From an uncultured Nitrosomonas sp. (GTDB lineage: Bacteria > Pseudomonadota > Gammaproteobacteria > Burkholderiales > Nitrosomonadaceae), in the NCBI RefSeq assembly GCF_902826915.1, contig NZ_CADEGP010000001.1:2775-66774 (forward strand): a DNA stretch of 64,000 nucleotides. The letters run 5' to 3'. The position numbers and the translations under genes are program-made. The notes below the pieces were generated by a model that searched no databases, was not told the DNA's origin, and saw only the letters and a list, made by a program, of their open reading frames with translations. Shown piece by piece: positions 5,976 to 56,211 of this stretch (positions are counted from its first letter, which is position 1; each line of letters begins with the position of its first letter).

Positions 5976-5995
5976 TGCGGCAATTTGTCGCATTG
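5976..5995 (+). repeat. Copy E of the 20-nt near-palindromic intergenic motif (TGCGGCAATTTGTCGCATTG)
   Basis: Read directly from the sequence. It matches five other copies in the window. It lies 424 nt upstream of the 6419 CDS in the same orientation. Confidence 0.9.
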
Positions 5996-6418: not shown

Positions 6419-8296
6419 ATGACCACTAATCAAACCATAATTCTTATTATTCTAGTGTTCACAATGGCGATGTTCTTATGGGGGCGTTGGCGTCACGATA
6501 TGGTTGCAGTGGCCTCGTTGCTTGCTTGTGTGCTTACCGGATTGATTGCGGCGGCTGATGCTTTTGCTGGTTTCGGCCACCCAGCGGTGATCAGTGTGGC
6601 TTGTATTCTGATACTGAGCCGGAGTTTGCAAACCTCGGGGGCGGTCAATGTGCTAGTCCGCCATACTTTGCCGAAAAATGCTGGTCCGACGTTGAATTTG
6701 GTGGCTCTGGTTGGATTGGGCGCAGCACTTTCCGGCTTCATGAATAATGTTGGAGCAATGGCGCTTTTGATGCCGGTGGCGATTCAGTTGGCTGAGCGTC
6801 TTGAACTGCCTCCCGGACGAATATTAATGCCATTGGCTTTTGGTACCATTCTCGGCGGCATGACGACTATGATTGGAACACCACCCAACTTGATTGTTTC
6901 AGGCTTTCGTGCCCAGAGTGGCGCTGGCAGCTTTGGTATGTTTGATTTTACGCCTGTTGGTTTGGCTGTTGCCTTGAGTGGAGTAGTTTTTATAGCAGTT
7001 GTCGGCTGGCGACTGGTTCCCATGCGTAAACAAACTGGCATGGAAGGTTTTGAGACAGGTGCTTACATCACTGAAGTGCGTGTGTCGACCGATAGTAAAG
7101 CTGCCGGGATGGTCATGCACGAGCTTGAAACTATACTTGATGGACATGCCGCACAAGTCGTAGGTTTAGTGCGAAATGAAGCACATTTCACTGCGCTTCG
7201 AGCTGGGTTCAAGATATTGACTAATGATATCCTGATAATTGAAGCTGAAGCTGAGGTTCTGGCGCACATTCTATCGGATCTTGGGCTAAGTCTGGAGGAA
7301 GCGGATACTCAACACAACGATAGTGAAAAGGATCAAAGTGAGGCGGATCATACTCCGCGGCATGATGACATTAAAGTGAGTGACAAAAAGGCTGATGCTT
7401 TAGAATCAGATGAAGCAGAAGAAGAATCTTCGCAAAGTGATGAGATCATTTTGATGGAGTTTGTGGTTCGCCCGGAATCAACGATCTCAGGTCGATCGGC
7501 TGCGGACATGCGGCTACGCACCCGCTATGGGCTCAATCTACTGGCAGTATCACGCGAAGGTTCACGTGCTAAGACGCGGTTGAGAACGCTGAAAATTCAA
7601 CCTGGCGACTTGTTGTTGCTTCAGGGTACCGCAGAAGTATTAGCTGAGTTTGCAGCTGATTTCGGTTGTGTGCCATTAGCCAGTCGCGAGCTACATATTC
7701 CGGATAAGCGCAAAGCACTAATTGCCGGCGGTATCATGGCTGCCGCAGTCGGTGGCGCAGCTTTTGGTTTGTTGCCGGCAGCCATTTCATTTGCTCTCGG
7801 CGTGTTGGGCGTAATGGTTTTTCACATCATCGCGCCCCGAGCGGTTTATGACGCAATTGATTGGCCGGTAATCGTCTTGCTCGGAGCACTTATTCCCGTG
7901 GCCGGCGTATTAGAATCTACCGGAATGGCAGATCTGGTGGCACGATTCATGATCGACAATATTGTGCAAGGTCATGCCATTATGGGACTTGCACTCATTC
8001 TGATTATTACCATGTTTCTATCCGATTTAATGAATAATGCAGCCACTGCAGCCGTGATGTGTCCAATCGCTATTGGTACCGCGACTGCGCTTGGAGTGAA
8101 TGCCGACTCTTTTCTAATGGCGGTGGCGATCGGTGCTTCTTGTGCTTTCCTGACACCAATTGGGCATCAGAATAATACCCTCATACTGGGCCCTGGTGGT
8201 TTTCGCTTTGGTGACTACTGGCAACTTGGATTGCCGCTCGAGATATTAGTAATCGTTGTCAGTATTCCGCTGCTATTGATCTTTTGGCCACTCTAA
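6419..8296 (+). CDS. SLC13/DASS-type anion permease with two internal TrkA-C (RCK-C) domains and an acidic linker
   Basis: 625 aa. Multi-TM halves flank a soluble middle region with two TrkA-C-like repeats, separated by a D/E/S-rich stretch (EEADTQHNDSEKDQSEADH...EAEEESSQSDE). It is paralogous to 8333..10678 and 35896..37671. Confidence 0.8.
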   Translation: MTTNQTIILIILVFTMAMFLWGRWRHDMVAVASLLACVLTGLIAAADAFAGFGHPAVISVACILILSRSLQTSGAVNVLVRHTLPKNAGPTLNLVALVGLGAALSGFMNNVGAMALLMPVAIQLAERLELPPGRILMPLAFGTILGGMTTMIGTPPNLIVSGFRAQSGAGSFGMFDFTPVGLAVALSGVVFIAVVGWRLVPMRKQTGMEGFETGAYITEVRVSTDSKAAGMVMHELETILDGHAAQVVGLVRNEAHFTALRAGFKILTNDILIIEAEAEVLAHILSDLGLSLEEADTQHNDSEKDQSEADHTPRHDDIKVSDKKADALESDEAEEESSQSDEIILMEFVVRPESTISGRSAADMRLRTRYGLNLLAVSREGSRAKTRLRTLKIQPGDLLLLQGTAEVLAEFAADFGCVPLASRELHIPDKRKALIAGGIMAAAVGGAAFGLLPAAISFALGVLGVMVFHIIAPRAVYDAIDWPVIVLLGALIPVAGVLESTGMADLVARFMIDNIVQGHAIMGLALILIITMFLSDLMNNAATAAVMCPIAIGTATALGVNADSFLMAVAIGASCAFLTPIGHQNNTLILGPGGFRFGDYWQLGLPLEILVIVVSIPLLLIFWPL

Positions 8297-8332
8297 CTGA
8301 CAACGTTAAATAAAACCGGAGGCTGAGCGAGA

Positions 8333-10678
8333 ATGACTTTTGAGATCGTGTTGGTACTTGGGATTCTCTTTTCGTGCCTCATTCTTTTTGTCACTGAATG
8401 GGTGCGCATGGATGTGGTGGCGCTGATGGTGTTGTCAAGCTTGGCGATTTTTGGACTGGTATCGCCAGCGGAGGCAGTTAGCGGCTTTAGTAATCCGGCG
8501 GTGATCACGGTATGGGCGATGTACATTATGAGCGAAGGACTCACTCGTGCCGGTATTGCCGATCAAATCGGCGGTCTGGTGATGCGCGTAAGCGGACGAA
8601 GCGAAGTACGTATCATTACAATTTTTATGATCGCAGCAGGCGTACTATCAGCTTTTATGAATAATATTGCTGTTGCGGTATTAATGCTGCCGGTGGTAAT
8701 CGAGGTGGCTCGACGTTCCGCAATTGCACCGTCTCGAGTGCTGATGCCGTTGGCTTACGGCACATTGCTCGGTGGGCTCATGACGCTCATCGGAACTCCT
8801 CCGAATTTGCTCGTGAGTAGTGCATTGCGCGAGGCTGGAGAAGTAGAATTTGGTTTCTTCGATTTTGCCTATATCGGGGTGCCAATCTTGTTGATTGGTA
8901 CCGCTTTTGTCGCACTATTGGGTCGTCACTTGCTACCGACAACTGATACCACGAAGTTAATTGAAAAGAAACGAAACTTACAGGCTGAATACGGATTGCA
9001 GGAGCGTAACTTTGTTTTGCAGGTTCCCACCGATGCTCTGCTGATTGGCAAGACGATCGCTGACTCCGGTATGACCTGGGCTGCAGGTTTGGTGATCATT
9101 GCACTAACTCGCGCAGGCCGGACAGAAGTGCTGCCCAGGGCAAATACTGTGTTGCAAGCGGGTGATATTTTGCTTACCCAAGGTCGTTTTGATCACTTCG
9201 AGCGATTACGCAGTTGGAGTACGCTCAAGATTGAGCGCGAGGCACCAATCCTGCATGAGAGATTGTTGGTCGACAACAAGCTTGCCGAATTGACGGTGGC
9301 CGACAATGCTTCCCTGATTGGTAATCCGCTGCGCCACCGCGCATTTCGCGAGCGTTTTGGAGTCAATATATTGGCAATTCGACGTGAAGGATTATTGCGT
9401 CGTACACGGCTAGCGGAGATGGTGATCGCTACAGACGATCGTTTATTGGTGCAGGGTACGCCACAGGCGCTGGCAGCATTACATGATGTAGCGGAATTTT
9501 CCACTGTGGGGCCGGTTACGCCCGAGGAAATGCGGGAAAGCTATCAGCTCGACGCACGCTTGTTCGTATTGCATGTGCCGAACGATACGCCATTGTCTGG
9601 CTCTACATTGGCCGAGAATCAGTTAGGGGATGCTTTTGATTTTCGTTTGCTCGGCATTTTTCGAGAGGGTGAGGTGTTGGAGTCGCCGGTCTCAGAAGAG
9701 ATTATTCAAGCGGGAGATTTATTACTGATCCAGGGGCGGGAAAGTGATTTGGATATGTTGCGCGGTTTGCAGCAACTGGAGCGGCTGGACGATGTATCTC
9801 CTTATCTGGATGTATTCAAGCAAGGTGAGCTCGATTTAGTCGAAGCAACGTTATATCCACATAGTAAATTTGTCGGCCGCCGCGTGGAAGATCTGCAGTT
9901 CGATGAACATTATCAGGTGGAATTGGTTGCCATTTGGCGTGCAGGAAAACCGCACCGATCAAGCCTGCGTGCAATGACACTGCAATCGGGTGATGGGCTG
10001 CTCTTTGTAGGGCCGAAGGTACGTTTGGCCGGACTTAATGACATTGAAGATTTATTGATTCTTAATCCGATACAAGTCAAACCAATCAACACACATAAGG
10101 CACCGCTTGCCGGTGCGCTGATGTTGCTAGTCGTTGCTGCGGTAATTATGGAATTACTGCCCATTTCGATTGCAGCTATTGCGGGAGCCACCTTGATGGT
10201 GCTGAGCGGCTGTCTCAGCATGGAACAGGCACACCGCGCAATTGAGTGGCGATCAATCTTTCTGATCGCTGGTATGCTGCCACTTGGCATTGCAATGCAA
10301 CATACCGGCGCAGCCACTTTGCTAGCTCAAAACATGCTCGATCTACTAGGTCCTGGCGGGGCGTGGGTCGTTATCGCTGGGCTCTATATTGTCACTACAC
10401 TCGGCGCGCTAATCATGCCAACCGTAGCACTTGTACTCATCATGGCACCGATCGCTTTGACGCTCAGTTCAACGCTGGGTGTATCCGCGCAAACTGTTAT
10501 GATGGTGGTTGCAATTGCCGCAACCAGTCTTGCTAGCCCGGTGTCACATCCAGCCAATACCCTGGTAATGGGGCCGGGTGGATATCGATTTATCGATTAC
10601 TTGAAGCTTGGCATCCCGCTCACTATAGTTGTGTCTCTGGTTACGGTTTTTCTACTGCCAGTATTTTGGCCACTGTAG
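8333..10678 (+). CDS. SLC13/DASS-type anion permease with about four internal TrkA-C (RCK-C) domains
   Basis: 781 aa. The TM halves are the same as in the upstream paralogue (shared motifs such as GTPPNL and PxGHxxNxLVMGPGGYRF). The soluble insert is roughly twice as long. Confidence 0.8.
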   Translation: MTFEIVLVLGILFSCLILFVTEWVRMDVVALMVLSSLAIFGLVSPAEAVSGFSNPAVITVWAMYIMSEGLTRAGIADQIGGLVMRVSGRSEVRIITIFMIAAGVLSAFMNNIAVAVLMLPVVIEVARRSAIAPSRVLMPLAYGTLLGGLMTLIGTPPNLLVSSALREAGEVEFGFFDFAYIGVPILLIGTAFVALLGRHLLPTTDTTKLIEKKRNLQAEYGLQERNFVLQVPTDALLIGKTIADSGMTWAAGLVIIALTRAGRTEVLPRANTVLQAGDILLTQGRFDHFERLRSWSTLKIEREAPILHERLLVDNKLAELTVADNASLIGNPLRHRAFRERFGVNILAIRREGLLRRTRLAEMVIATDDRLLVQGTPQALAALHDVAEFSTVGPVTPEEMRESYQLDARLFVLHVPNDTPLSGSTLAENQLGDAFDFRLLGIFREGEVLESPVSEEIIQAGDLLLIQGRESDLDMLRGLQQLERLDDVSPYLDVFKQGELDLVEATLYPHSKFVGRRVEDLQFDEHYQVELVAIWRAGKPHRSSLRAMTLQSGDGLLFVGPKVRLAGLNDIEDLLILNPIQVKPINTHKAPLAGALMLLVVAAVIMELLPISIAAIAGATLMVLSGCLSMEQAHRAIEWRSIFLIAGMLPLGIAMQHTGAATLLAQNMLDLLGPGGAWVVIAGLYIVTTLGALIMPTVALVLIMAPIALTLSSTLGVSAQTVMMVVAIAATSLASPVSHPANTLVMGPGGYRFIDYLKLGIPLTIVVSLVTVFLLPVFWPL

Positions 10679-15815: not shown

Positions 15816-15914
15816 TTAGCAACGAAGATTGTACCGACTATGTTGTGGAATCGGGTTAGAATTAATTCAAAATTGATGGGTTGTCAGTAATTAAAATACT
15901 CGCAAGTAAGTGTC

Positions 15915-17819: not shown

Positions 17820-17825
17820 GCGTAC

Positions 17826-24917: not shown

Positions 24918-24937
24918 TGCGGCAATTTGCCACATTC
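24918..24937 (+). repeat. Copy D of the 20-nt motif (TGCGGCAATTTGCCACATTC)
   Basis: Read directly. It lies 254 nt upstream of the 25191 CDS in the same orientation. Confidence 0.9.
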
Positions 24938-25190
24938 CATGAATCTTGCGTATTGTGCATAATCGATAGGTTTATTCAAAAAGTTTGTAGCTCAGCGATT
25001 TAAATTAAGATAATACGTTTTCTCAGATTAACTCTGTTTCCATTTTTATTCTAAGAATAATCGTGTTACCTAGATTCTGAAAAGAATTTGAAAGATGTCA
25101 CTCAGAATTGACAGTTATTGCTTTTAACAGCAGCAAAGAGCTAAGCAATGCAGCTTAACCGCAACATACAATAAAAGTGGAGTTGTTATT

Positions 25191-25625
25191 ATGAAGAAAC
25201 AGTCGTTAAAAAAAGCTGTCGTTCTCATCGGCATCGTCATGGCCATTTGCCAGGCAGGTGTTGTTTCGTCCCATCAATTGATTAATAGCCTTACCGCAGT
25301 TGATGCTGTCGATCATTTCCTGGTTACTTGTAGTGAAGCAGATAATCATCATCTGTATGCGCAGATCGATGATCTCAGGGTGGTTGATAATAGACAATTC
25401 AATTTGCTGGTTGCCAAAGACAAGGTGGCTTCCAGTGCCACTAATCCCGATGGAGAATCAAGCCCTGTCATTCGACTGGCAGGAGGTGTAGGTGTTTATC
25501 ATGTGTACGTCAGTCAAATCGTGGGTGGTGATAAAGCAGCTAATTATCAATTAATTTTTCATTGCGAAGATGTCGATAATGCGCATTTTGAAACATCGGT
25601 GCTAACTAAAATTGACCAACCATAG
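25191..25625 (+). CDS. Small secreted protein, divergent member of the family also found at 51125 and 52048; predicted mature N-terminus is His
   Basis: 144 aa with a GGAG RBS. The signal peptide ends VVSS/HQL. It aligns by eye with 51125/52048 over AVDxxxxTC, SPxxxxxxGxGVYxxxV, and HC-x6-H-x2-TSV. Confidence 0.75.
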   Translation: MKKQSLKKAVVLIGIVMAICQAGVVSSHQLINSLTAVDAVDHFLVTCSEADNHHLYAQIDDLRVVDNRQFNLLVAKDKVASSATNPDGESSPVIRLAGGVGVYHVYVSQIVGGDKAANYQLIFHCEDVDNAHFETSVLTKIDQP

Positions 25626-25636
25626 TATGTCTGAGT

Positions 25637-26830
25637 CTATTGATTGCTGTCGTCATCGGATTGCCTGATCGGAATTAAACGAAAGCCGGTATCCATACTG
25701 TTCCAGGATAGAAAAATTTGCTTGCCGTCAGTGATCAGTGCAGGATGAGCGGACTGAGTTGCTGTTTCGGCAACTACTTGCGGTTTTGACCAGTGCAATC
25801 CACCATCTGTAGAATACATAGCTTCCACGCGGGTCTGAGTGCCGTCAAACACCTTCCATGCAAGCGCTACCTGTTTGCCCAAAGCCAGCACATCGGCTCG
25901 ACCGGGTAGTTTATCTTGATCGCCCACTTGCATTGGATTGGAGAAGGTTTTTCCTTGATCATCGGACCATGCATAAAAAATTCCGCTACGTTTTTCTCCC
26001 TGAGTAAACCAAACCATGTGATACCGTCCATCAGCGCCGATCGACAAGGCAGGTCCGTGCGCAGGACAGCCTTCAATTTCCCAGTCATCGAATGTTACTC
26101 GCCACGGTTCGCTTGTTTTTCCGTCGGGTGATAGCTTAAGTAAACCATGATCGCGGATATTTCCGGGATAGACATAACGGGCCAGCATGACCAGACTGCC
26201 ATCGACATCCTCAGCCATGGCTGTACGGCAGCAGGAGCAGATGTTTTTCGCAATGCGTTGATCCGTAGGAAGGTTAATTATTCTGCCGGTTTTTGCAGAT
26301 ACATGGTAGATCGATAGATCTCCATCGCCCTGTTTTTTGTATTCGGCCCGATCACGCACATCGTGCCAAGTAAAATGCACGCGATTGTTCGTGTCTATTA
26401 GCATCTCCGCCTGATAGTGATACCAGGTATTGGCTTCAGAACTAATTTTGACCGGTGTGCTGAACTGGGTGCCGTTGTCGGAATGGCTGAAAAAACTGGT
26501 GCTGGATTGTTTATCATCGGCAAAGTAGAGCACATACACTCTTCCTGTTTGATCAACGGCTAAGGTGGGCGGATTTTCATCCCATGCATGTATCGGCATA
26601 CCTGCCGAGTTGACGCGAACCGGTTGACTGAAAGACTGGCCAAAATCGATTGAATAATCAACAGAAATGGATTTCTGGGCAGAAAGAATGCGCCAAAGCC
26701 GCCCATCTGGCCCAAATGTCGCTGCGGTATAGATTTTTTGTTCAGGCAGTAATTTTTCGGTTTCAGCAACCAGATTATGCGATAAAGCTAGTAATAATAG
26801 AGTGCTGCAGATCAAAGCAAAATGATTCAT
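25637..26830 (-). CDS. Secreted BNR/Asp-box repeat beta-propeller (sialidase-like fold) with CxCC and GCPxHGP motifs
   Basis: 397 aa with a signal peptide. There are four Asp-box-like motifs (SIDFGQSF, SDNGTQF, SDDQGKTF, STDGGLHW). Unusual motifs are C198-x-C200-C201 and G-C255-P-A-H258-G-P. Confidence 0.7.
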   Translation of the reverse strand: MNHFALICSTLLLLALSHNLVAETEKLLPEQKIYTAATFGPDGRLWRILSAQKSISVDYSIDFGQSFSQPVRVNSAGMPIHAWDENPPTLAVDQTGRVYVLYFADDKQSSTSFFSHSDNGTQFSTPVKISSEANTWYHYQAEMLIDTNNRVHFTWHDVRDRAEYKKQGDGDLSIYHVSAKTGRIINLPTDQRIAKNICSCCRTAMAEDVDGSLVMLARYVYPGNIRDHGLLKLSPDGKTSEPWRVTFDDWEIEGCPAHGPALSIGADGRYHMVWFTQGEKRSGIFYAWSDDQGKTFSNPMQVGDQDKLPGRADVLALGKQVALAWKVFDGTQTRVEAMYSTDGGLHWSKPQVVAETATQSAHPALITDGKQIFLSWNSMDTGFRLIPIRQSDDDSNQ

Positions 26831-26987
26831 GTGAGTATATTTTGTGTAGGCGCGATTCTGAGTTAACCTCTCCTATTTGCTTGGGACAAGTATAGTAAGG
26901 GAAGTGCATCAAATTAAAGAGAGTGAGGGGGATTCCTGTTTCAATTTACACTACCTTAATAGAAAGAAACTCCGAACAGAAGCAGGT

Positions 26988-27482
26988 CTAATTGATAATT
27001 GTCTTGAGCATGGCTTCGAGCGTTTCGCGTGATACAGAACCACTGATGCCGACACGCTGGTGATCTTTGTCGAGAAAATAGGTGCGAGGGACTTCACCAT
27101 ACCATTTAGGATCAATTTCATAACGAAGTTTTTGGGAGTTGGCGTCAGCAAAGATCCAGTTATCTGCATTATTCAGTTCATTTCCAGTCAGTATAGACAG
27201 CGCTTGATTAGAAGCTGAAGCATCATCAGTTGCTAGCATGATCAGGTTAATATCCGGCATATTTTTGCGAAGCTCACTAAGTAATGGCATCTTTTTTTTG
27301 CACGAAGTGCAGTTGATAGACCAAATCATCAATACGAATGGCTTGTCGGCATATTCATTCAGTAATTGTTGATAGCTGCCAGAAGTAAAATGCTTCAAAT
27401 TAACTTGCTCAGCGCGAGCGGGGAAGGCAATGCTGCACGACAAGAATAGTAAGTAAGTAATTAGAATTTTAGGTGATTTCAT
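26988..27482 (-). CDS. Periplasmic TlpA/ResA-like thiol:disulfide oxidoreductase
   Basis: 164 aa with a signal peptide (SIAFPARA/EQ) and a thioredoxin-fold active site (WSINCTSC). Confidence 0.75.
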   Translation of the reverse strand: MKSPKILITYLLFLSCSIAFPARAEQVNLKHFTSGSYQQLLNEYADKPFVLMIWSINCTSCKKKMPLLSELRKNMPDINLIMLATDDASASNQALSILTGNELNNADNWIFADANSQKLRYEIDPKWYGEVPRTYFLDKDHQRVGISGSVSRETLEAMLKTIIN

Positions 27483-27652
27483 GATGATGCCTCTTAATGT
27501 TTGCGATATCGGGATCCCTAAGTATCAAAATTTCAGTGTGAAATTGTGTAAAACCAGATTGCTTGATCAGTGTTATTGTTTTCTGCGAATAGGGTATGAA
27601 AAACTATCCGTCAATTCTTTTATGATTATCTACAAAATTTGATTGTTTGAAC

Positions 27653-27670
27653 ATGCGACTAATTGTCGCA
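27653..27670 (-). repeat. Copy F of the 20-nt motif (minus-strand reading TGCGACAATTAGTCGCATG)
   Basis: Read directly. It lies 171 nt upstream of the minus-strand TlpA-like gene start (27482) in matching orientation. Confidence 0.85.
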
Positions 27671-46003: not shown

Positions 46004-47551
46004 TTACCGGATAAAGTGATGGGTGCCGATTGAATCAACAATCATCCGTCGATAGTGCTCTGATTTACGGATTTGTAACAGTTCGAGATTGCTTAGGTTG
46101 TCGGTCAGGATTGTTCCATGCGCTGGGTCAATAGTTAATAATCTCTGATTTAACCAGGTGCGGTTGGAGAAAGGTATTGAATCATCGCCCAAATTGATGA
46201 CATGATTTGTGGCGAGAAAAATGAAATCATTAAAATCTGCACCCGGATCGGAAATGAATACGTGTTGATGCGGGAAGACTTGCGCCAATGTTTTCGAAAC
46301 AGAGGCCAGCGCCGCATTTTGACCATTATCCAGGAAAGAAACAAAATTCAGAGCAAGAATTCCGTGCCTTGAAAGCAAGCCGTGCAATTGCGCTAATGCT
46401 TCAACGGTCAATAAATGGGTTGGTTCGGTGCCGCCAGTGAATACATCCAGAATGATTAAATCATAAGGGCCTTTGAGCTGACGAATCTCATAACGCGCAT
46501 CGCCGATGATTCTACGACCTGTTGGCATAAAGCCGAAATATTCGTTGGCCGCTTCGGCAACGGCAGGGTCAATTTCCAGCGTGTCCGTTACAATTCCTGC
46601 CTTATTCAAAGTCATAACCATATGTCCGGCGCCCTGGCCAATTAATAAGGCTTTCTCCATATTCGGTACGAGAAAAGGGATTTGCCCCACGATTTTCTGG
46701 TAGGTGAGGAGATTTTCTCCATGGCTGATACTGGCTGCGCCAATGGTGGAAGCGTCTGAAGTGAGCAAACGAATATTTTCCTTGGGCTTGTCAATTACGC
46801 GAACCCAACCGTATAAGCTTTCTCGTTCGAATCGGGTTTGGAAGGTATCACTGAATTCTGCTTGCCCTGAGCTGACGATTTGTGGAAACAAGCCAAATCC
46901 AATCACCAATAATAGGGTTGCCGGTACGATGACCGTTGTGGATTTTAGATATTTTCGTTCTATCCATGCCACTGCCATCGCTAATACCAATAGTGCAATC
47001 CCCAGGCCCACAAAAATTTCACGAGAGCCGATCAAAGGAAATAAATAAAAACCGAGAAATAGCGTGCCGATGACGCTGCCGACGGTACTGACCGCATAAA
47101 TAGAGCCCGTGCTGGCGCCCACATTAGCCAGTGCGGAAGTGGATAATTTAACTGCAAAAGGCCCAACCATGCCCAGCATAATCAAGCTGGGCGAGAATAG
47201 GATCAGTGTGCTGATGAAGCTACCCAGACGCAAACCCAGCGGATCTGTGGCCAGTAAAACCGGCCCTGCCAGCCAGGGAATGATGAGTGTTAATAGTCCT
47301 GCCGTTGCGATAATGAGAGATAATCCAGATCGTGCCCGGTCGGCCCAGATTCCGCCCAGATAATAGCCAAGCGCCAGTGCGATCAGTGTGACAGCAATCA
47401 GTGAAGTCCAGACATACAGGCTGGCGCCATAGAAAGGCGCGATCAGCCGTGTGCCCAGCAACTCAATAACCATAACCGCTGCACCGGTGAGAAATACGGT
47501 GCAGTAAAGCCAGGCTTTGTCAAAAATAGTTGAAGATGAAGGAGTGTTCAT
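46004..47551 (-). CDS. Fused polytopic membrane domain plus spermidine/spermine synthase-like methyltransferase-fold domain
   Basis: 515 aa. The N-terminal ~200 aa are multi-TM. The C-terminal part has aminopropyltransferase-like motifs (LLIGQGAGH, LEIDPAV, DLIILDVFTGG). Confidence 0.7.
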   Translation of the reverse strand: MNTPSSSTIFDKAWLYCTVFLTGAAVMVIELLGTRLIAPFYGASLYVWTSLIAVTLIALALGYYLGGIWADRARSGLSLIIATAGLLTLIIPWLAGPVLLATDPLGLRLGSFISTLILFSPSLIMLGMVGPFAVKLSTSALANVGASTGSIYAVSTVGSVIGTLFLGFYLFPLIGSREIFVGLGIALLVLAMAVAWIERKYLKSTTVIVPATLLLVIGFGLFPQIVSSGQAEFSDTFQTRFERESLYGWVRVIDKPKENIRLLTSDASTIGAASISHGENLLTYQKIVGQIPFLVPNMEKALLIGQGAGHMVMTLNKAGIVTDTLEIDPAVAEAANEYFGFMPTGRRIIGDARYEIRQLKGPYDLIILDVFTGGTEPTHLLTVEALAQLHGLLSRHGILALNFVSFLDNGQNAALASVSKTLAQVFPHQHVFISDPGADFNDFIFLATNHVINLGDDSIPFSNRTWLNQRLLTIDPAHGTILTDNLSNLELLQIRKSEHYRRMIVDSIGTHHFIR

Positions 47552-47560
47552 GGATACCTT

Positions 47561-48868
47561 TTAGTGTTTTAACTTATTTTTCTTGAAATCGTTGATGATG
47601 ATATGGCCATCGGAGATGACCAGATCGGGATATTCCAGCAATTTAAACCGTTCAAACGGATTGCCGCGGACGGCGATAATATCTGCCGGAGCATGTTTCA
47701 TCAATGTGCCGAGCAACGGATAATTCAAATGCATTCCCGCTTCGGAAGTTGCTGACCTGAATACCCGCAGCACATCTCCAAAATCAATCCCGTCCGGACT
47801 GGTTAAATTCAACATCAAAACCATTTCTTCTGCGTTGATGCCCCAGGGCACATTGTCATGGCCAATTTCAGATCCATAGATAAATTTTGATTTTGAATCT
47901 GGACTATGAGACATGATGTGCGCAAGCTTATGCGCATTGGCGTGAATGCCAGTGCAACCTGATAGGGTATCCACCGTGGTTACGAAGGTTACGTTTTGTT
48001 CTACCGCACGATGTAATAAGTCCTCCCGAATTTCTGCGCAGGGGATATGTGACCATTCATCCACATCGGCATCTAGAGCCAGCTCAACCCCGGTATTTTC
48101 TCCGACATGGGCGGCTACCTTGCGGTTCAATGCATGCGCCTTGGTCACTATCACCTTGACGATATCCAAAGAAAGTAGTGGCCATGGTGTTTGCGGAGGC
48201 TCTCCGTGACCGTGGCTTGACATCCATGGCGCACCGGCTTCGCCTCCGGGTTCCAAAGCAATTTTGATCATGCTTGAACCACCAGCCACCAAATCGATTA
48301 CGGTTTTCTCAGCTTCTTCAATGGTGGCAACCGCTACACCAATGGTACCGTATTTGTCATGACCACCAGACGTCTCGGTTCCGTGATTGCCGAAAATATT
48401 CAATGGATAACCATCTACTGCCTGAATGATAGGGCCAACGCTCAATATACGTAATGTGCCATTACCTCCCATCGGTTTCAAAAGCGGCCCGCCGGTATCA
48501 CGGACAGTTGTGATGCCATGTTTCAATACTTTATCGCTAGGAATTTTTTGAAAAGTAATGTGTGCATGAGATTCAATAAAGCCTGGCAGAATAGTCGCAT
48601 CACCTAATTTCATTTTCCTGCTGCATAATTCACCCAGTTGGTTTGGGTCACCGACTTGAACAATCTTATTGCCTTTAATCAAAACGGCTGCATTTTCGTG
48701 CAGGTCGAAGCCGTCAAAAACGCGATCGGCACTTAACACATAACATTGATTATTTGCAGCAGATTCTGCTGAGTCATTCTGTGCAAAAACATGCAGGCTG
48801 AGCGAGGCTGTCAAAGCCAAGATAATGAGTTGTATGATGGTTTTTAATTGATCAGTTCTGATTTTCAT
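47561..48868 (-). CDS. Secreted metal-dependent amidohydrolase family protein
   Basis: 435 aa with a signal peptide (SLSLHVFA/QN) and the HxH motif (GFIESHAHI). It lies 9 nt upstream of 46004..47551, so they probably form an operon. Confidence 0.75.
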   Translation of the reverse strand: MKIRTDQLKTIIQLIILALTASLSLHVFAQNDSAESAANNQCYVLSADRVFDGFDLHENAAVLIKGNKIVQVGDPNQLGELCSRKMKLGDATILPGFIESHAHITFQKIPSDKVLKHGITTVRDTGGPLLKPMGGNGTLRILSVGPIIQAVDGYPLNIFGNHGTETSGGHDKYGTIGVAVATIEEAEKTVIDLVAGGSSMIKIALEPGGEAGAPWMSSHGHGEPPQTPWPLLSLDIVKVIVTKAHALNRKVAAHVGENTGVELALDADVDEWSHIPCAEIREDLLHRAVEQNVTFVTTVDTLSGCTGIHANAHKLAHIMSHSPDSKSKFIYGSEIGHDNVPWGINAEEMVLMLNLTSPDGIDFGDVLRVFRSATSEAGMHLNYPLLGTLMKHAPADIIAVRGNPFERFKLLEYPDLVISDGHIIINDFKKNKLKH

Positions 48869-49032
48869 GTTTTTTGTCGGTAATTTTTTTATAAATTCTT
48901 CGATGGGTTTGCTGTGGTTTTACAACGCGCTTGTGAAGAATGATGTTCTAATTATCTTTGCAGTATGTTGATGATTTCTATCCGCATGGATTAATTATTT
49001 GCCATTTTAAGTAAAAAAAACAATATTGGTAA

Positions 49033-49050
49033 TGCGACAAATTGTCGCAG
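49033..49050 (-). repeat. Copy A of the 20-nt motif (minus-strand reading TGCGACAATTTGTCGCATTA)
   Basis: Read directly. It lies 165 nt upstream of the minus-strand amidohydrolase start (48868) in matching orientation. Confidence 0.9.
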
Positions 49051-49159
49051 CCGTGACAAGAAGAACCTGAAATAATGCCGGTTAATATTTTTTTAATATA
49101 TTGTTTAATAATAGTTAATGTTCTTTTGTGAGATGCGCATTCTTGCTGTAATGCTGACC

Positions 49160-49179
49160 TGCGGCAATTTGTCACATTG
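49160..49179 (+). repeat. Copy B of the 20-nt motif (TGCGGCAATTTGTCACATTG)
   Basis: Read directly. No annotated CDS lies downstream. It is followed about 190 nt later by an intrinsic terminator. Confidence 0.9.
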
Positions 49180-49368
49180 TTTTTCTATGGTTTGATCAAT
49201 AGTATCCATTCCTGAAGAAATTGCTGTTTATCTCCTAGCGATTTTTTTAAATGATGTCTCGTTGAATAATCTCTTGTGGTGCGAGCACTTGTATCTCTGG
49301 AAGCCTATCTTCTTACTGTAAGAGGAAAAGAAGTTAAACAACCGGTGGATAATTAAGCGCAATTAATA

Positions 49369-49399
49369 CCCCGCAGCTTGCTGCGGGGTTTTTTCTTTT
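49369..49399 (+). terminator. Rho-independent terminator (CCCCGCAG-CTTG-CTGCGGGG followed by TTTTTTCTTTT) with no CDS upstream
   Basis: Perfect 8-bp GC-rich stem, tetraloop and T-run, read directly on the plus strand. Confidence 0.8.
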
Positions 49400-49417
49400 G
49401 GAGATAGACAGTTGGGG

Positions 49418-49437
49418 TGCGACAATTTGCCACATTG
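49418..49437 (+). repeat. Copy C of the 20-nt motif (TGCGACAATTTGCCACATTG)
   Basis: Read directly. It lies 185 nt upstream of the 49622 CDS in the same orientation. Confidence 0.9.
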
Positions 49438-49621
49438 CTTTTACGTGATAAGCAAAATAACATCGCGTCCTGAAATAAGTTCTTTTCTCTAGGGAGTAAA
49501 GGTATCTGGGTAGGTGGGAAAAGAATGGTTTCAGTTGCCCTTTGAGATCCACCTCAAAAGGCAACTATAGTGAGAAAGTATAAAAAATTCTATTAATAAG
49601 TTAAAAAGAGGTCTTTACAAC

Positions 49622-50377
49622 ATGTTAACAAAACAATTTAAGTCTTTTACCCATACTGCGTTAGCGACTGCTCTGCTGTTGGGTCTCTCACAAAACGTAT
49701 TATCGCATACTCGCCTGGAAATTCCTGCAGGAACCGAAGGGGTGAGAATTACTAATAATGTGGTTATTGGCCATGGTTGCGGAGATAATACTTTTGTAAC
49801 TAAAAGTTCAATAGTTTTTCCAGATGGTGTGGATTCAATTGTCAAAGTCAATGGCGCAGTTTCATCTGACACCATTGATGTACACGTTGCAAATTGGGGT
49901 AATTTATTTCAGAAAGTGTTGGAGCCAGTTGTTTTTAAAGCAGAAGATGAGAAGACTGATGGTAGCGGTAATGTCGTAGGGTTTTATGTGAAAGATGGCA
50001 AAATGCCGAATCATTATGCAAGCTATCTTAAATTTAGAGCCGGTGCGGTTTTGTTTGAACCGACCTCCTGTGCTTCTAGCTTAAAAATTGTTATACCAAT
50101 TGCGGATATTTGCAAGCAAACACCGATATCAGGCTTTGCCGATGGGAAGCTTAATCTCTGGACACCGGCGGTAGGATCTGATTATGACGGTCCTGGATTG
50201 CATGGTTACGATTCTCCAGCAACTTACACGGTAAATCGTGATCTGGTTGTCAATCCACTACCCGGAAGTTGTTCGGCGACAGGAGATGTGGTTGATTTGG
50301 TTCCATCCGCAGCGCAGATCAACCGTGATATGCCAATCAAAAACAAGAAGGGTGTGCAGATTTGGCCAAAACCATAA
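49622..50377 (+). CDS. Secreted YcnI/DUF1775-like protein with a C-terminal extension; predicted mature N-terminus is His
   Basis: 251 aa with the signal peptide ending NVLS/HTRLE. Mature HTRLEIPAGTEGVRITNNVVIGHGCGDN...IVFPDGV resembles the proteobacterial DUF1775 pattern H-V-x-L-E-P...AG....F-R-V-x-HGC-x-G-S...I-P-x-GV as I remember it. Confidence 0.55.
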   Translation: MLTKQFKSFTHTALATALLLGLSQNVLSHTRLEIPAGTEGVRITNNVVIGHGCGDNTFVTKSSIVFPDGVDSIVKVNGAVSSDTIDVHVANWGNLFQKVLEPVVFKAEDEKTDGSGNVVGFYVKDGKMPNHYASYLKFRAGAVLFEPTSCASSLKIVIPIADICKQTPISGFADGKLNLWTPAVGSDYDGPGLHGYDSPATYTVNRDLVVNPLPGSCSATGDVVDLVPSAAQINRDMPIKNKKGVQIWPKP

Positions 50378-50465
50378 AATGATGGTGATGTATTAGCTTT
50401 CTGTTGTAAGGGGAGGTGAGCGGTGTGGGAGCTCTTGTTCATCTCCTAATTTTTGAGGAGCCAAG

Positions 50466-51038
50466 ATGTTGAAATTACCAAATCATAAGAGTGGCATAGC
50501 CATGCCGCTCGTTATTTCTTTTATTGTAATGGCCGGATTTGCGAATCATGTGTTTGCAGACAATGCAAAAGCGAGCTCGCCTTCCAGCTTGGATTCCATC
50601 CAGATTTATTGCATGGCGGAACAGGGCAGTGCAGCGGAGCCTGATGCTAATTTTACCGAGACTATAATCGACCTTGCGGCATCGAATGATCCGGCACAAA
50701 GAGTAAGCGCCTTGTCGCAACTGGCAGAAAAAGGATCGATTGACGCCGGCGTTGTAGAGAAAATTCTGCAAACCGCGATTCAAGATGCCGACCCGAACGT
50801 CAGAGGACAGGCAGTTTATGCCTTTGCACAGCAAGGTTGCGGTGATCTTTTTGTAGTACTTGAACAAGCTTTGCAAGACACCGAGCTTTCAGTACGGCTG
50901 ATGGCGTTGGATAGTTTGGGTGCTGATGAAAGAAGCGTAGCGCTACTTAAAGAAATCGTTGAAGACGAAGACGAAACTGAAGCTATCAAAGATCTGGCTG
51001 CGATGAAATTGGAATCTTTGAGCACAAGTAGTAATTAA
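50466..51038 (+). CDS. Periplasmic HEAT-repeat (PBS-lyase type) protein
   Basis: 190 aa with a signal-like N-terminus (ISFIVMAGFANHVFA/DN). The repeats carry the D(P/A)xxRVxAxxxL pattern (DPAQRVSALSQL, DPNVRGQAVYAF, ELSVRLMALDSL). Confidence 0.65.
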   Translation: MLKLPNHKSGIAMPLVISFIVMAGFANHVFADNAKASSPSSLDSIQIYCMAEQGSAAEPDANFTETIIDLAASNDPAQRVSALSQLAEKGSIDAGVVEKILQTAIQDADPNVRGQAVYAFAQQGCGDLFVVLEQALQDTELSVRLMALDSLGADERSVALLKEIVEDEDETEAIKDLAAMKLESLSTSSN

Positions 51039-51056
51039 GGCTTAAGGCTTAAGGCA
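51036..51056. repeat. 7-bp tandem repeat (TAAGGCT x3) starting at the HEAT-gene stop codon
   Basis: TAAGGCTTAAGGCTTAAGGCA read directly. Confidence 0.8.
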
Positions 51057-51124
51057 GTGGCATTTAATAAGCTGCTTATGCTATCGATGGAATTGTAAGA
51101 TTATCTTATTTAAGAGGGTTGAAG

Positions 51125-51586
51125 ATGAAATTCTCAAATTTGAAGGGAATATTTGTTTCGGTTTTTGGATTAATGGCGTTATATGCAGGCACTGTTTCGG
51201 CGCATAACCAAGCGGGCAGCTTTACCACCGGCTTAGCGGCTGCGGTTGACTTTTATCAGGCCACTTGTTTTGACGATGGAAGTGGTGCGCCGTCCTATCT
51301 CGAAGCGCAAGTCAAAGATATGACAGCCAGCACCGCCAAAGCCAGCATACTCGTGCATAAAGGAACCAGTTGCACCACCAATAAGTGCGCGCAATTTAGT
51401 GTCGACACTACGGATAGCAACACCACCTACAGTCCTTTAGTGACCGTAAAGCAAGGTGCCGGGGTATATAGCATATTCGTGATGCATACGGCAGCAGGCA
51501 CGGATAGTTATGATGTGGCGCTCCATTGTAAAACCGCAGCCGGTGTACATACGGGTACCAGTGTCGTATCAAGACAGCAGCAATGA
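51125..51586 (+). CDS. Small secreted protein, family member 1 (predicted mature N-terminus His; 4 Cys; C-terminal HC-x6-H)
   Basis: AAGAGGG RBS 7 nt before the ATG. The signal peptide ends TVSA/HNQAGSF. It has a close paralogue at 52048 and a distant one at 25191. Confidence 0.8.
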   Translation: MKFSNLKGIFVSVFGLMALYAGTVSAHNQAGSFTTGLAAAVDFYQATCFDDGSGAPSYLEAQVKDMTASTAKASILVHKGTSCTTNKCAQFSVDTTDSNTTYSPLVTVKQGAGVYSIFVMHTAAGTDSYDVALHCKTAAGVHTGTSVVSRQQQ

Positions 51587-51689: not shown

Positions 51690-51950
51690 AACGCTTTAAT
51701 TTTGATGTCTTTAAGTGGTACTGGATTTGCATGAATCATTTGTTCACAGAGTATGTGAAAGCAAATTGGGTTTTCAGCCTGAGTCCAGCGTACATTGATT
51801 GTTTAGCCGGGAATGGTCATTTAGCTTTACGGTATCGAACAACCCCACACAAAGGGTAAGCACATTCTCGCGATTGGCCATGAAGGGTCGATTGGTGCTG
51901 GAGCCCTACAAAATTCCGCGTACAGCGATTCAAGATAACGATATCCAATA
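51690..51950 (+). pseudogene. Decayed, internally deleted copy of the HEAT-repeat gene (50466..51038)
   Basis: Nucleotide similarity is visible by eye. GGATTTGCATGAATCAT matches GGATTTGCGAATCAT. GTTCACAGAGTATGTGAAAGCAAATTGGG matches GTTTGCAGACAATGCAAAAGCGAGCTCGCC. The translated relic ..SNNPTQRVSTFSRLAMKGRL..TAIQDNDIQ* matches ASNDPAQRVSALSQLAEKGSI..TAIQDADPNV. It is truncated by a stop and lacks an intact start. Confidence 0.7.
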
Positions 51951-52047
51951 AACTGCTCGCGGTGTCGGCAGGATTGTAAAGTTATATCAGATGATCACTC
52001 GTGTTAAAGAGAGTGACAAAAAGATTGTTGATTTAAGGAGGTGTATG

Positions 52048-52509
52048 ATGAAATTCTCAAATTTGAAGGGAATGCTTGTTTTATTGTTTGTATTGATGGC
52101 ACTGAATGTTGGTACAGCTTCGGCGCATAATCAAGCGGGTAGTTTTACCACTGGTTTGGCGGCTGCGGTTGACTATTATCAGGCTACTTGTTTTGACGAT
52201 GGAAGCGGCGCGCCGTCCTATCTCGAAGCGCAAGTCAAGGATATGACAGCCAGTTCAGCTAAAGTGAGTGTGCTCGTGCATAAAGGAACCAGTTGTGCCA
52301 CCAAAAAGTGCGCGCAATTTAGAGTCGATAGCGGGGATCGCAACACCACTTACAGTCCCTTAGTGAAAGTTCCGCAAGGTTCTGGTGTATATAGTGTATT
52401 CGTGATGCATACGGCAGCAGGCACGGATAGTTATGATGTGGCGCTCCACTGTAAAACCTCAAGCGGTATACATACGGGAACCAGTGTCGTATCGAGACAA
52501 CAACAATAA
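52048..52509 (+). CDS. Small secreted protein, family member 2 (tandem paralogue of 51125..51586)
   Basis: AGGAGG RBS. The signal peptide ends TASA/HNQAGSF. By manual count there are about 25 substitutions over ~153 residues relative to 51125..51586. Confidence 0.8.
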   Translation: MKFSNLKGMLVLLFVLMALNVGTASAHNQAGSFTTGLAAAVDYYQATCFDDGSGAPSYLEAQVKDMTASSAKVSVLVHKGTSCATKKCAQFRVDSGDRNTTYSPLVKVPQGSGVYSVFVMHTAAGTDSYDVALHCKTSSGIHTGTSVVSRQQQ

Positions 52510-53925: not shown

Positions 53926-54020
53926 GATTATTGTTTAATATGATGAGTTAAAGTTAAGGGTATTCAATGGCTCCATTGTAACAAACTGTGCAAACAATTA
54001 ATCGATGCAGGAATGCAAGC

Positions 54021-54743
54021 ATGAGCGCAAAAATACTGATCGTGGAAGACGAAGCGGCTATCCGTGAGTTAATTGTTTATAATTTGCAGCAAGCCGGGTA
54101 TGAAAGTATTTGTGCTGAGGATGCGGAGAAGGCAATGGCGATCATTCATGATGCATTGCCAGATTTGATTTTGTTGGATTGGTTGCTGCCGAATATGACG
54201 GGCATAGATTTTGCCAGAGTGCTGCGGCGCAATGAACGTACCCGTCTTATCCCGATTATTATGCTGACAGCACGAACCCAGGAAGCGGATAAAGTAGCCG
54301 GTCTGGAAATAGGTGCGGATGACTACGTAACAAAGCCTTTCTCGCCGCGTGAATTGATTGCACGAATTAATGCGGTTTTGCGTCGATTAATCCCGGAAGC
54401 TTCTGCACAAGTGGTTGAAATCCATGGATTGCGTTTAGATCCGGTCAATCATCGTGTTACAGATGGGAATAGAGAAATTGCACTGGGGCCTACTGAGTAT
54501 CGTTTGCTGCATTTTATGATGTCACATACCGAGCGTGTATATTCGCGTAGTCAATTGTTAGATCGAGTATGGGGCGATCACGTATTTGTCGAAGAGCGCA
54601 CTGTCGATGTGCATATCCGCCGGTTGCGGAAAGCCCTGCAATGGACCGGTAAAGACAGCTGGATACAAACTGTCAGAGGAGCAGGGTATCGGTTCTCGGC
54701 TGTTGCCGTGGTTCCCGCTAATGGTTCAAATAAGGAAATCTGA
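54021..54743 (+). CDS. phoB: Phosphate regulon response regulator PhoB (OmpR family)
   Basis: Starts at MSAKILIVEDE. It has a receiver domain plus a winged-helix domain and is followed by phoR. Confidence 0.85.
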   Translation: MSAKILIVEDEAAIRELIVYNLQQAGYESICAEDAEKAMAIIHDALPDLILLDWLLPNMTGIDFARVLRRNERTRLIPIIMLTARTQEADKVAGLEIGADDYVTKPFSPRELIARINAVLRRLIPEASAQVVEIHGLRLDPVNHRVTDGNREIALGPTEYRLLHFMMSHTERVYSRSQLLDRVWGDHVFVEERTVDVHIRRLRKALQWTGKDSWIQTVRGAGYRFSAVAVVPANGSNKEI

Positions 54744-54903
54744 TAATGTTTGCTGTGCATAATGTTACAGTGATGAAACTGATCGGCATAGAATGTTGAT
54801 AAATGTGCATCGGTATCGTTATGATTCTGCAGAGCGAGTCAGCGAATTTTAAAAAAATCACAAAATTTTTCAGATAATTGTTTTATTGTAGGATAGTGCT
54901 TAA

Positions 54904-56211
54904 GTGTCTGATATCTGGCGGCGTTCATCAAACATTCTTTTTCTTATCTTTGTTACAGCGTTACTATGGATGATCTTTGGTGCTGTGAAGGCGCTGATTT
55001 TCTTCAGTGTAGTCATGCTGTGGGTCGTATTTCATCATATTCGTCACTTGGTCTTACTCGAGCGTTGGTTACAGCTTTCTGATCATTCTCCCGCGAGCAT
55101 CCCCGCGGGTTCTGGAGCTTGGGATGATGTGTATGCACATTTGGCGCGCTACGTACGTGGGCATAGTCAGAGCCAGGAAAGGCTGAGTATTGCCTTAAAG
55201 CGTATGCAAAGTGTCACCTCTGCAATGCCCGATGGTATTGTTATTCTCGATATGAGTGATCGCATTGAATGGTGTAACACAGTTGCGGAAAAACACCTAG
55301 GCATCAATCTAGCATTGGATGTCGGTCAGCAGATTACCTATCTGGTGAGGCAGGTACCATTTGTTGAATATCTGGCCGCACGCCAATATACTAATCCATT
55401 GATTCTAAATCAGATACGATTGTATGGTTTGATTGTTTCTTTGCAGTTGGTGCCTTATGGTTATAACCAGAAGCTTTTGATCAGTCGCGATATTACGCGT
55501 TTTGAGAAAATAGAAACGATGCGGCGCGATTTTATTGCTAATGTCTCGCATGAATTGCGCACACCGCTTACTGTTATCAGTGGTTTTCTTGAAACACTAT
55601 CCGCTGATGATAATGTTAATAGCGGTTTCAATAAGCGTGCCTTGGTATTAATGACAGAGCAGACAACTCGCATGCAGCGGTTAATTGAAGATTTGCTGAT
55701 TTTGTCACGTCTTGAAAATGAGCAGAATAAGATAAGCGAAAAAACAGTGAATGTGGTTAGCTTGGCGCAAGATCTTTTGCAGGATGCGGAGTCCCTGAGT
55801 ACAGGCCGACATCAAATAAAATTAACTATTGCTTCGCAAGATCAGCTCTTAGGAAGCGAAGAAGAGTTACGCAGTGCTTTTGGCAACTTGATCAGTAATG
55901 CGATTCGTTATACCCCAGATGGGGGCGAAATAAATATTAGTTGGGAAAAGCACCATGATCAAGGATTGTTTGTTGTACAAGATAGTGGAATCGGGATTGA
56001 GCTCGAGCACATTCCGCGCTTGACAGAGCGTTTTTATCGTATTGATAGCAGCCGTTCGAGAGAAACTGGCGGTACAGGACTTGGCTTGGCAATTGTCAAA
56101 CATGTTTTGAACCGGCATGAAGCGCGTCTTGAAATTACCAGTCAAGTAGGTAAGGGGAGTCGATTTAATATCTGGTTTCCGGCTAAACGTTTAATTCCGG
56201 GAAATGCTTGA
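54904..56211 (+). CDS. phoR: Phosphate regulon sensor histidine kinase PhoR
   Basis: 435 aa with a GTG start. It has an N-terminal membrane segment, a PAS-like region, an H-box (FIANVSHELRTPLT) and an HATPase domain (GTGLGLAIV). Confidence 0.85.
   Translation: MSDIWRRSSNILFLIFVTALLWMIFGAVKALIFFSVVMLWVVFHHIRHLVLLERWLQLSDHSPASIPAGSGAWDDVYAHLARYVRGHSQSQERLSIALKRMQSVTSAMPDGIVILDMSDRIEWCNTVAEKHLGINLALDVGQQITYLVRQVPFVEYLAARQYTNPLILNQIRLYGLIVSLQLVPYGYNQKLLISRDITRFEKIETMRRDFIANVSHELRTPLTVISGFLETLSADDNVNSGFNKRALVLMTEQTTRMQRLIEDLLILSRLENEQNKISEKTVNVVSLAQDLLQDAESLSTGRHQIKLTIASQDQLLGSEEELRSAFGNLISNAIRYTPDGGEINISWEKHHDQGLFVVQDSGIGIELEHIPRLTERFYRIDSSRSRETGGTGLGLAIVKHVLNRHEARLEITSQVGKGSRFNIWFPAKRLIPGNA

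Follow-up and report, generated by a model that had tools for sequence, protein, structure and literature searches.

Six palindromes in Nitrosomonas DNA as probable operators of a RegA-family response regulator

Response regulators of the RegA family (ActR/PrrA/RegR/RoxR/SpdR), which carry a Fis-type helix-turn-helix (HTH), are partnered by the kinase RegB, whose hallmarks are a quinone-binding GGXXNPF motif, an H-box and a redox cysteine (PMC8191878). Several of their DNA sites have been described. The Caulobacter crescentus RegA homologue SpdR, which mostly activates its targets (PMC6530869), has a site, defined by electrophoretic mobility shift assay (EMSA), of sequence CTGCGAC-N5-GTCGCAG (PMC4830024); the consensus for PrrA is YSCGGC(5)GWCRMA and the RegR box is GNGRCRTTNNGNCGC (both quoted in PMC5506826), and a putative RoxR site of B. 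cenocepacia, termed the 'RoxR consensus', reads GCGGCAATTTAGAGC (PMC9104464). The gamma- and beta-proteobacterial RegBA homologues of Pseudomonas and Burkholderia are known as RoxSR and have terminal oxidases as known targets; in cells that lack haem-copper oxidases, or in which these are inhibited, RoxSR is active (PMC5436846). Here we analyse a palindromic box, TGCGRCAATTWGYCRCA, in a 64,000-nucleotide stretch of DNA from an uncultured Nitrosomonas sp. (contig NZ_CADEGP010000001.1; this whole stretch is referred to as the window). We are fairly confident that its six copies are operators of a RegA-family regulator, and this assignment is based on the identity of the site, the coupling of the box to regBA genes, the occurrence of RegBA in Nitrosomonas and a fixed phasing of the box to promoters.

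The palindromic box and its six copies in the window

The box occurs six times in the window, always in intergenic DNA, against a chance expectation of 0.08. A preliminary description of this DNA, made from the letters by eye, had reported six copies that are always intergenic, and the searches agree with it: the 20-mer TGCGRCAATTTGYCRCATTG with up to three mismatches gave exactly six matches (5976+, 24918+, 27651-, 49030-, 49160+ and 49418+), the same search on dinucleotide-preserving shuffles averaged 0.08 matches and never exceeded one, and the 17-bp palindrome alone found the same six sites. The plus-strand positions given previously stand, whereas the minus-strand copies are displaced by 1-3 nucleotides (nt), their palindromes lying at 27654-27670 and 49033-49049. 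The set is discrete, since the six sites match at 16-17 of the 17 positions in a graded scan of the 64 kb and the runner-up at only 13; in an alignment of the flanks, likeness is confined to the 17-20 nt core plus a -10 hexamer, with no extended repeat, which bears out the earlier view that this is not a repeat of the REP (repetitive extragenic palindromic) type. The consensus of the window copies, TGCGRC-AATTT-GYCRCA, is dyad symmetric and has its 5-nt spacer fixed as AATTT.

The six boxes are distributed over four intergenic regions of a window whose coding share is 85.5% by a crude pick of open reading frames (ORFs). Three of them lie in a single divergent region, put at about 750 bp in the preliminary description and measuring 753 bp (48869-49621). 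Five copies precede a start codon on the same strand, at distances of 161, 168, 184, 253 and 423 nt that agree within 1-4 nt with the earlier figures. The boxes, with the promoter-like hexamers beside them, are as follows.

Box s1, 5976..5992, + strand: TGCGGCAATTTGTCGCA; -35-like TTGAAA at 5993-5998 and, after a 15-nt spacer, a weak -10, TAAAAC, at 6014-6019; possible target, an SLC13/CitMHS permease pair that starts 423 nt downstream of the box.
Box s2, 24918..24934, + strand: TGCGGCAATTTGCCACA; -35-like TTCCAT; -10 CATAAT at 24958-24963; target, the gene for a 144-amino-acid (aa) secreted N-terminal-His protein, 253 nt downstream.
Box s3, 27654..27670, - strand: TGCGACAATTAGTCGCA (read on the - strand); -10 GATAAT at 27625-27630; upstream of a TlpA-like/BNR-like gene pair.
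Box s4, 49033..49049, - strand: TGCGACAATTTGTCGCA (read on the - strand); -35-like TTACCA; -10 TAAAAT at 49004-49009; target, an amidohydrolase/fused MFS-spermidine-synthase pair.
Box s5, 49160..49176, + strand: TGCGGCAATTTGTCACA; -35-like TTGTTT; -10 TAGTAT at 49200-49205; upstream of a candidate small RNA (sRNA).
Box s6, 49418..49434, + strand: TGCGACAATTTGCCACA; -35-like TTGCTT; -10 TAACAT at 49458-49463; a YcnI-fold gene lies 184 nt downstream.

The box has the same half-sites as the SpdR site, TGCGAC and GTCGCA, and agrees with it in dyad symmetry and in a spacer of 5 nt. Box s1 fits the Rhodobacter PrrA consensus at every position and the Bradyrhizobium RegR box with one mismatch, and the putative RoxR site has the left half-site and the spacer in common with the window copies.

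Coupling of the box to regBA genes and to promoters

Scanning 185,579 species genomes with the pattern TGCGRCAATTTGYCRCATT returned at least 118 loci, which provide a sample rather than a census of the regulon content. The taxa among the loci listed include Nitrosomonas, Nitrosospira, Gallionella, Methylotenera, methanotrophs, Rhodocyclaceae, Mariprofundus, Desulfobulbaceae and others. According to ORF clustering, the commonest neighbour of the box among these loci is a multi-pass sensor kinase of ~460 aa, and behind it comes a ~180-aa response regulator whose HTH is of the Fis type. The best NCBIfam models for these neighbours are ActS/PrrB/RegB and ActR/PrrA/RegA, their best Protein Data Bank (PDB) relatives are 3RQI (a B. 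pseudomallei regulator) and 1UMQ (the PrrA DNA-binding domain), and the JGI annotation of homologues is RegA; by tblastn, regB and/or regA is present in 26 of the 118 motif loci among the matches listed. A reciprocal analysis picked 80 metagenome loci by RegA protein homology while ignoring the motif, and 55 of these had a complete regB plus upstream DNA. A box matching at 15 or more of the 17 positions was found between -400 and +60 of the regB start in 35 of the 55, compared with only 1% of 460-bp windows drawn at random from those loci. Where the preliminary description had proposed an unidentified regulator, the sequence of the site and the genes adjoining the box therefore point to RegB/RegA. 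It was right, however, in stating that the window encodes no cognate regulator: tblastn of the window with RegA and RegB found PhoB/PhoR only, the sole two-component system there. This pair (53988-56211, + strand) scores above the curated NCBIfam cut-offs and is unrelated to the motif. We infer that regBA is located elsewhere in this Nitrosomonas genome.

Literature searches found neither a link of RegB/RegA to Nitrosomonas or to ammonia oxidisers nor a paper containing the box sequence. A first RegA homologue search with a Gallionellaceae query returned Gallionellaceae-like proteins only, and two abundant matches lay in non-Nitrosomonas contexts. When the metagenome loci picked through RegA were compared with Nitrosomonas loci by tetranucleotide composition, one of them (L151) was Nitrosomonas-like (r = 0.81); the homologues of its RegA named by NCBI belong to Nitrosomonas sp. 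wSCUT-2 (98%) and sp. Is79A3 (88%), and further homologues occur in N. aestuarii ('response regulator RegA') and in many Nitrosomonas metagenome-assembled genomes (MAGs). The complete genome of Is79A3 has regB and regA adjacent. Its RegB contains GGSTNPF, the H-box AHELGTP and a Cys exactly 40 residues past the phospho-accepting His, and has the ActS/PrrB/RegB model as its best NCBIfam match, along its entire length (287 bits, cut-off 350), whilst the best NCBIfam match of its RegA is ActR/PrrA/RegA (203 bits, cut-off 250); this RegA and PrrA (1UMQ) have one and the same recognition helix, LNMHRRTLQR. In Is79A3 regB is preceded, at a distance of 78 nt, by a box, TGTGACAATTTGTCACA, that has a -10 hexamer 23 nt past it, and the Nitrosomonas regBA loci L210 and L151 both carry the box at the correct -10 phasing. 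The window DNA derives from a bacterium closely related to N. ureae, with which it shares gene order, 88% identity in the 251-aa YcnI-fold protein and 88% identity in the intergenic region. By comparison with congeners, a RegA orthologue would be expected in the organism studied here as well.

The phasing of the box was examined by aligning 135 unique sites, from the window plus the loci listed by the motif scan, in which the -10 positions lie outside the search pattern. Positions +41 to +46 from the box start read TAnaAT among the matches listed (T41 in 94, A42 in 117, A45 in 84 and T46 in 107 of the 135). This -10 hexamer lies 23 nt past the palindrome and the -35 hexamer starts at the very next base after it, which places the centre of the box near -44. 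Five of the six window sites have the phased -10 hexamer, s1 being the exception, and of the 35 boxes anchored by protein homology, 11 have it toward regB only, 12 away from regB only and two both ways, 25 in all. In the window, the predicted transcription starts fall ~52-54 nt past the start of each box, near 6028, 24970, 27618 (- strand), 48997 (- strand), 49212 and 49470. The flanks had been described as unconserved, which is incorrect, since the downstream flank contains a -10-like hexamer at a fixed distance. The copies are indeed oriented, as had been noted from a CATT(G) tail, but the direction stems from the fixed promoter phasing and not from asymmetry of the operator: the tail arises because the palindrome joins a TTG-type -35, and the orientation toward genes because the box is phased to the direction of the promoter.

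Owing to the weakness of the -35 hexamers, a generic sigma-70 scan detects the promoter belonging to the box at just one of the six window sites. Promoters that depend on an activator are usually laid out in this way, and the combination of weak -35, good -10 and abutting box makes activation by phosphorylated RegA (RegA~P) the likeliest mode; on these grounds the sites probably act in activation. The membrane kinase RegB, with its quinone-binding GGxxNPF motif and redox-active cysteine, would set the phosphorylation of RegA according to the state of the respiratory chain, a RegA dimer would occupy the 17-bp palindrome, TGCGRC-AATTT-GYCRCA, and the phosphorylated form, from near -44, would recruit sigma-70 RNA polymerase as a class-II-like activator. 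At many regBA loci (L130, L133, L136, L140, L141, L179, L201 and others) the box begins 51-55 nt before the annotated regB start, so that an autoregulated regB transcript, leaderless or near-leaderless, is predicted.

Other readings of the palindrome concern the protein that binds it. In Nitrosomonas the box might be bound by a different dimeric regulator that shares the specificity of RegA, with RegBA controlling other genes. RegA binding in ammonia oxidisers is a prediction, and regBA is found in none of the 23 Nitrosomonas/Nitrosospira loci among the motif matches listed, but the Nitrosomonas regBA operons (L210, L151) themselves carry the phased box, the recognition helix is that of PrrA and no other regulator gene recurs beside the box in the ammonia-oxidiser loci among the matches listed, making such a regulator very unlikely. 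The preliminary description had likened the half-sites GACAA/TTGTC to the copper box of E. coli CusR, a short dyad with these half-sites upstream of periplasmic copper-handling genes, and many of the targets are copper-related in appearance. An operator for a CusR/CopR-like (OmpR-family) copper regulator, with a shortened spacer, is nonetheless highly improbable: the conserved half-site is TGCGRC and not ATGACA, its outer bases being TGCG instead of ATGA, the spacing differs, no CusRS/CopRS pair adjoins the motif among the matches listed, and the window's sole OmpR-family pair is PhoBR, whereas the regulators that do adjoin the box are RegBA, in 26 genome loci among the matches listed and 35 of 55 metagenome loci. 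Moreover, the half-sites and spacing of the motif are those bound in EMSA by the RegA homologue SpdR (PMC4830024), and CusR has a winged helix of OmpR/PhoB type. With half-site, spacing and associated regulators all in disagreement, the copper-box analogy was abandoned. Sigma-54 promoters have GG and GC 10 nt apart (TGGCAC-N5-TTGCW), and the GG...GC of the motif vaguely resembles such a -24/-12 element; the copies are also repeated and always oriented, as in a REP-like or mobile repeat. Neither an alternative sigma element nor a repeat is at all credible, however. In the motif GG and GC stand 9 nt apart, and GA or CA takes their place in half of the copies (GG reads GA in three copies and GC reads AC in three); a separate sigma-70-type -10 is present, strictly phased; a perfect dyad is typical of a dimeric regulator; the flanks are unalike beyond the 17-20 nt core plus -10, and the next match in the window is at 13 of 17. 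About three quarters of the 136 occurrences among the matches listed are intergenic, and about half of the remainder fall inside doubtful ORFs of 150 aa or less.

A further alternative keeps RegA as the binding protein and changes the sign of regulation: RegA, acting mainly as a repressor or with a dual function, would hinder polymerase or compete with an activator at -52 to -36, and the genes would be de-repressed while RegA is unphosphorylated. RegA-family proteins do repress some promoters, RoxSR repressing coxB (PMC5436846), the DNA affinity of the A. ferrooxidans protein is unaltered by phosphorylation (PMC5506826), and the box touches the -35 hexamer. Yet it stops where the -35 starts and covers neither the -35 nor the -10; a weak -35 beside a good -10, with one of six box promoters found by the sigma-70 scan, is the usual signature of dependence on an activator; and the phasing is constant over 135 sites across distant Proteobacteria, among the matches listed. 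We consider this mode rather unlikely. Several observations nevertheless weigh against the main reading of activating RegA operators. Besides the dual behaviour of the family, RegA sites in R. capsulatus are degenerate and none could be derived for A. ferrooxidans RegA (PMC5506826), so that sequence is not always predictive of RegA binding. The beta- and gamma-proteobacterial RegA and RegB proteins fall below the curated equivalog cut-offs (203 versus 250 and 287 versus 350 bits), regBA lies outside the 64-kb window and its presence in the source genome is deduced from congeners, and the operator assignment in Nitrosomonas is inferred from sequence, for binding and expression alike. Box s1 is without a convincing -10 and is 423 nt from its presumed target. 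Regarding function, the copper theme comes from annotation-level evidence and is suggestive, and although some of the TonB receptors adjacent to boxes have a copper-receptor model as best match, all are below its cut-off and several are generic.

Genes and candidate small RNAs behind the boxes

On the reading that the six boxes are RegA operators, the genes that follow them would form the window's share of the regulon. Flanking genes were identified with Pfam and NCBIfam, and the features concerned are listed here.

Probable operon behind s6, 49622..51586, + strand: YcnI-fold protein of 251 aa (49622-50377), HEAT-repeat protein (50466-51038) and 155-aa secreted N-terminal-His protein (51119-51586).
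Probable operon behind s4, 46004..48868, - strand: amidohydrolase (47561-48868) and fused MFS/spermidine-synthase-like membrane protein (46004-47551).
Probable operon behind s3, 25637..27482, - strand: TlpA/ResA-like thioredoxin-fold protein (26988-27482) and BNR-repeat-like protein (25637-26830).
144-aa secreted N-terminal-His protein, 25191..25625, + strand: target of s2; paralogue of the protein encoded at 51119-51586, with a homologue behind a box in locus L047.
Two CitMHS/SLC13-type permeases with TrkA_C, 6419..10678, + strand: possible target of s1.
Candidate sRNA of ~185 nt, 49212..49399, + strand: from a predicted start to an intrinsic terminator at 49368-49399.

The genes behind s6 are presumably co-transcribed, and their order is the same in the N. 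ureae locus L211 and in L212. The 251-aa protein has no Pfam or NCBIfam family match and belongs to a family of 361 members, all named ones being Nitrosomonas 'hypothetical protein' entries. Its AlphaFold model is confident (pLDDT 86.8), and the best PDB matches of the model are Bacillus subtilis YcnI, a copper-binding protein, with and without copper (E = 6e-5, template modelling score 0.65-0.73 when normalised to YcnI), which supports at the level of the fold the earlier guess of a YcnI-like protein. Within the family, Glu39 and His51 are invariant, and His29, which directly follows the predicted signal peptide, is at least 90% conserved. Box s6 is kept in eight other loci (L211, L212, L213, L002, L047, L055, L082 and L091), and orthologues of the YcnI-fold gene are found behind a phased box in N. 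ureae, strains PY1 and Nm84 and several MAGs. A near-perfect 14-bp hairpin (49533-49566, + strand; AGTTGCCCTTTGAG / CTCAAAAGGCAACT), almost identical in N. ureae, lies in the 5' leader predicted for this gene.

The arrangement at s4 is repeated in five other loci (L002, L060, L091, L100 and L211), with the amidohydrolase/MFS-spermidine-synthase pair plus phased box kept in five genomes; in L098 the box stands directly before the gene for the MFS-spermidine-synthase protein. Behind s3, Pfam and NCBIfam place the TlpA-like protein among the thioredoxin-like proteins, as had been proposed; in Nitrosospira (L025 and L065) its orthologues follow a box with the same phasing, and homologues of the BNR-like gene adjoin a box in L005, L020 and L077. 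A BNR-like and a TlpA-like gene, 39-40% identical to the window pair, are also found at 4597-6161 of L165, a 261-kb metagenome contig, 3.5 kb from regBA. The preliminary suggestion that several targets are periplasmic metal or redox proteins is thus upheld by the YcnI fold and the thioredoxin-like calls, and the small regulon it envisaged is seen upstream of orthologues in other Nitrosomonas and Nitrosospira. The permease pair is a possible target of s1; this assignment is the weakest of the set, and the s1 promoter is poor.

Three paralogous small secreted proteins are encoded on the + strand (25191-25625, 51119-51586 and 52048-52509), each with a predicted mature N-terminal His and two invariant Cys. 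No Pfam, NCBIfam or PDB sequence match was found for them, and an AlphaFold model based on the three sequences is poor (pLDDT 63) and has a generic Ig-like beta-sandwich that is uninformative. Two of the genes reflect a segmental duplication (51108-51407 versus 52031-52330, with the gene copy 84% identical at a spacing of 923 nt), and between the copies, at 51799-51948, lies a decayed HEAT-repeat gene fragment with 52% identity over 42 aa to the gene at 50466-51038.

In locus L213 (Nitrosomonas CP106678.1, 5785-11045), a box is followed by genes for a YcnI-fold protein, a small N-terminal-His protein, a TlpA-like thioredoxin, DUF4266 and DUF3570; this series therefore joins in one cluster what are three separate targets in the window. 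The N. ureae locus (L211, OCMU01000001.1) has the hao-haoB-cytochrome c554-cM552 cluster at 13760-18044, ~2 kb downstream of the syntenic box cluster, and no box was seen before hao in this locus. Elsewhere, 12 of 60 genes behind boxes among the matches listed encode TonB-dependent receptors, and MbnP and SCO1/SenC genes also lie behind boxes in other taxa. Genes for PCuAC or a TonB receptor also occur divergent from regB, and in the PCuAC locus the regB promoter carries the box.

The sixth copy had been placed before an orphan terminator, and this terminator is real (49368-49389 plus a T-run). It is most simply explained as the end of a RegA-dependent small RNA that would start downstream of s5. 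The candidate contains no ORF of 30 aa or more, has a fold z-score of -2.7 compared with shuffles and displays UAUCUCCU in the loop of its first hairpin. The same three boxes occur in N. ureae, with s5 kept at position 9546 of L211; the transcribed part is better conserved than the s4-s5 spacer, the loop UAUCUCCU is conserved, and the first hairpin shows one compensatory pair, U-A to C-G. In Methylococcales and related gammaproteobacterial loci, a box divergent from regB precedes another RNA of ~80-105 nt, with a conserved stretch, GUUGCGUUAUAUCCUUCCUAAUA, plus a terminator, sometimes as two tandem copies (L018 4245-4610, L023 1120-1500, L032, L096, L011, L070, L083, L187, L191, L194 and L207). 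Rfam searches with the s5 transcript and the methanotroph RNA gave nothing at gathering score and chance-level matches by E-value, and RNAalifold was uninformative for a consensus fold of the methanotroph RNA on a poor MAFFT alignment.

A possible copper circuit and comparison with known RegB/RegA systems

The target annotations, together with the activity of RoxSR in the absence of haem-copper oxidases (PMC5436846), suggest a tentative hypothesis of feedback, in which a faltering copper-dependent respiratory chain would call for more copper supply and cuproenzyme assembly. Should copper-dependent respiration fail, and with it, in nitrifiers and methanotrophs, the copper monooxygenase, the quinone pool would shift, and RegA~P would then turn on a dedicated set for copper acquisition and assembly, namely TonB copper receptors, MbnP/MbnH, PCuAC, Sco, TlpA, YcnI-fold and new secreted N-terminal-His proteins, together with hitherto undescribed RegA-dependent small RNAs. 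That RegB/RegA provides feedback control of copper supply across many beta- and gamma-proteobacteria, among them Nitrosomonas, methanotrophs and iron oxidisers, is a doubtful extension of this idea; if true, it would name a copper-limitation sensor for organisms without a known one. For ammonia oxidisers the analysis offers a testable circuit, comprising a regulator, six promoters with predicted starts, a conserved candidate sRNA and uncharacterised target proteins. Amongst the latter, the Nitrosomonas-restricted YcnI-fold family and the small N-terminal-His proteins may plausibly handle copper, a metal that the key enzyme of the organism requires.

RegBA is a known kind of switch, of which no description in an ammonia oxidiser was found in the literature searched; nor did the search find a RoxSR regulon of copper-acquisition-type genes or small RNAs, or a statement of the -44 placement for SpdR. 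The window differs from the SpdR system in that its spacer is fixed as AATTT and its host is a betaproteobacterial ammonia oxidiser, and whereas SpdR targets are stationary-phase or adhesion genes, those in the window encode periplasmic copper/redox proteins. With Rhodobacter PrrA/RegA, Nitrosomonas shares the regulator family, the recognition helix, the RegB quinone motif and the redox cysteine, while the classical PrrA/RegA/RegR regulons comprise photosynthesis, CO2 and N2 fixation, denitrification and oxidases. Degeneracy and variable spacing mark the alphaproteobacterial motifs in the literature, and degeneracy has kept published RegA motifs from serving for regulon prediction. The box described here, in contrast, is far more informative and strictly phased to promoters, and this high-information element could help to delineate RegA regulons in the genomes of nitrifiers, methanotrophs and iron oxidisers.

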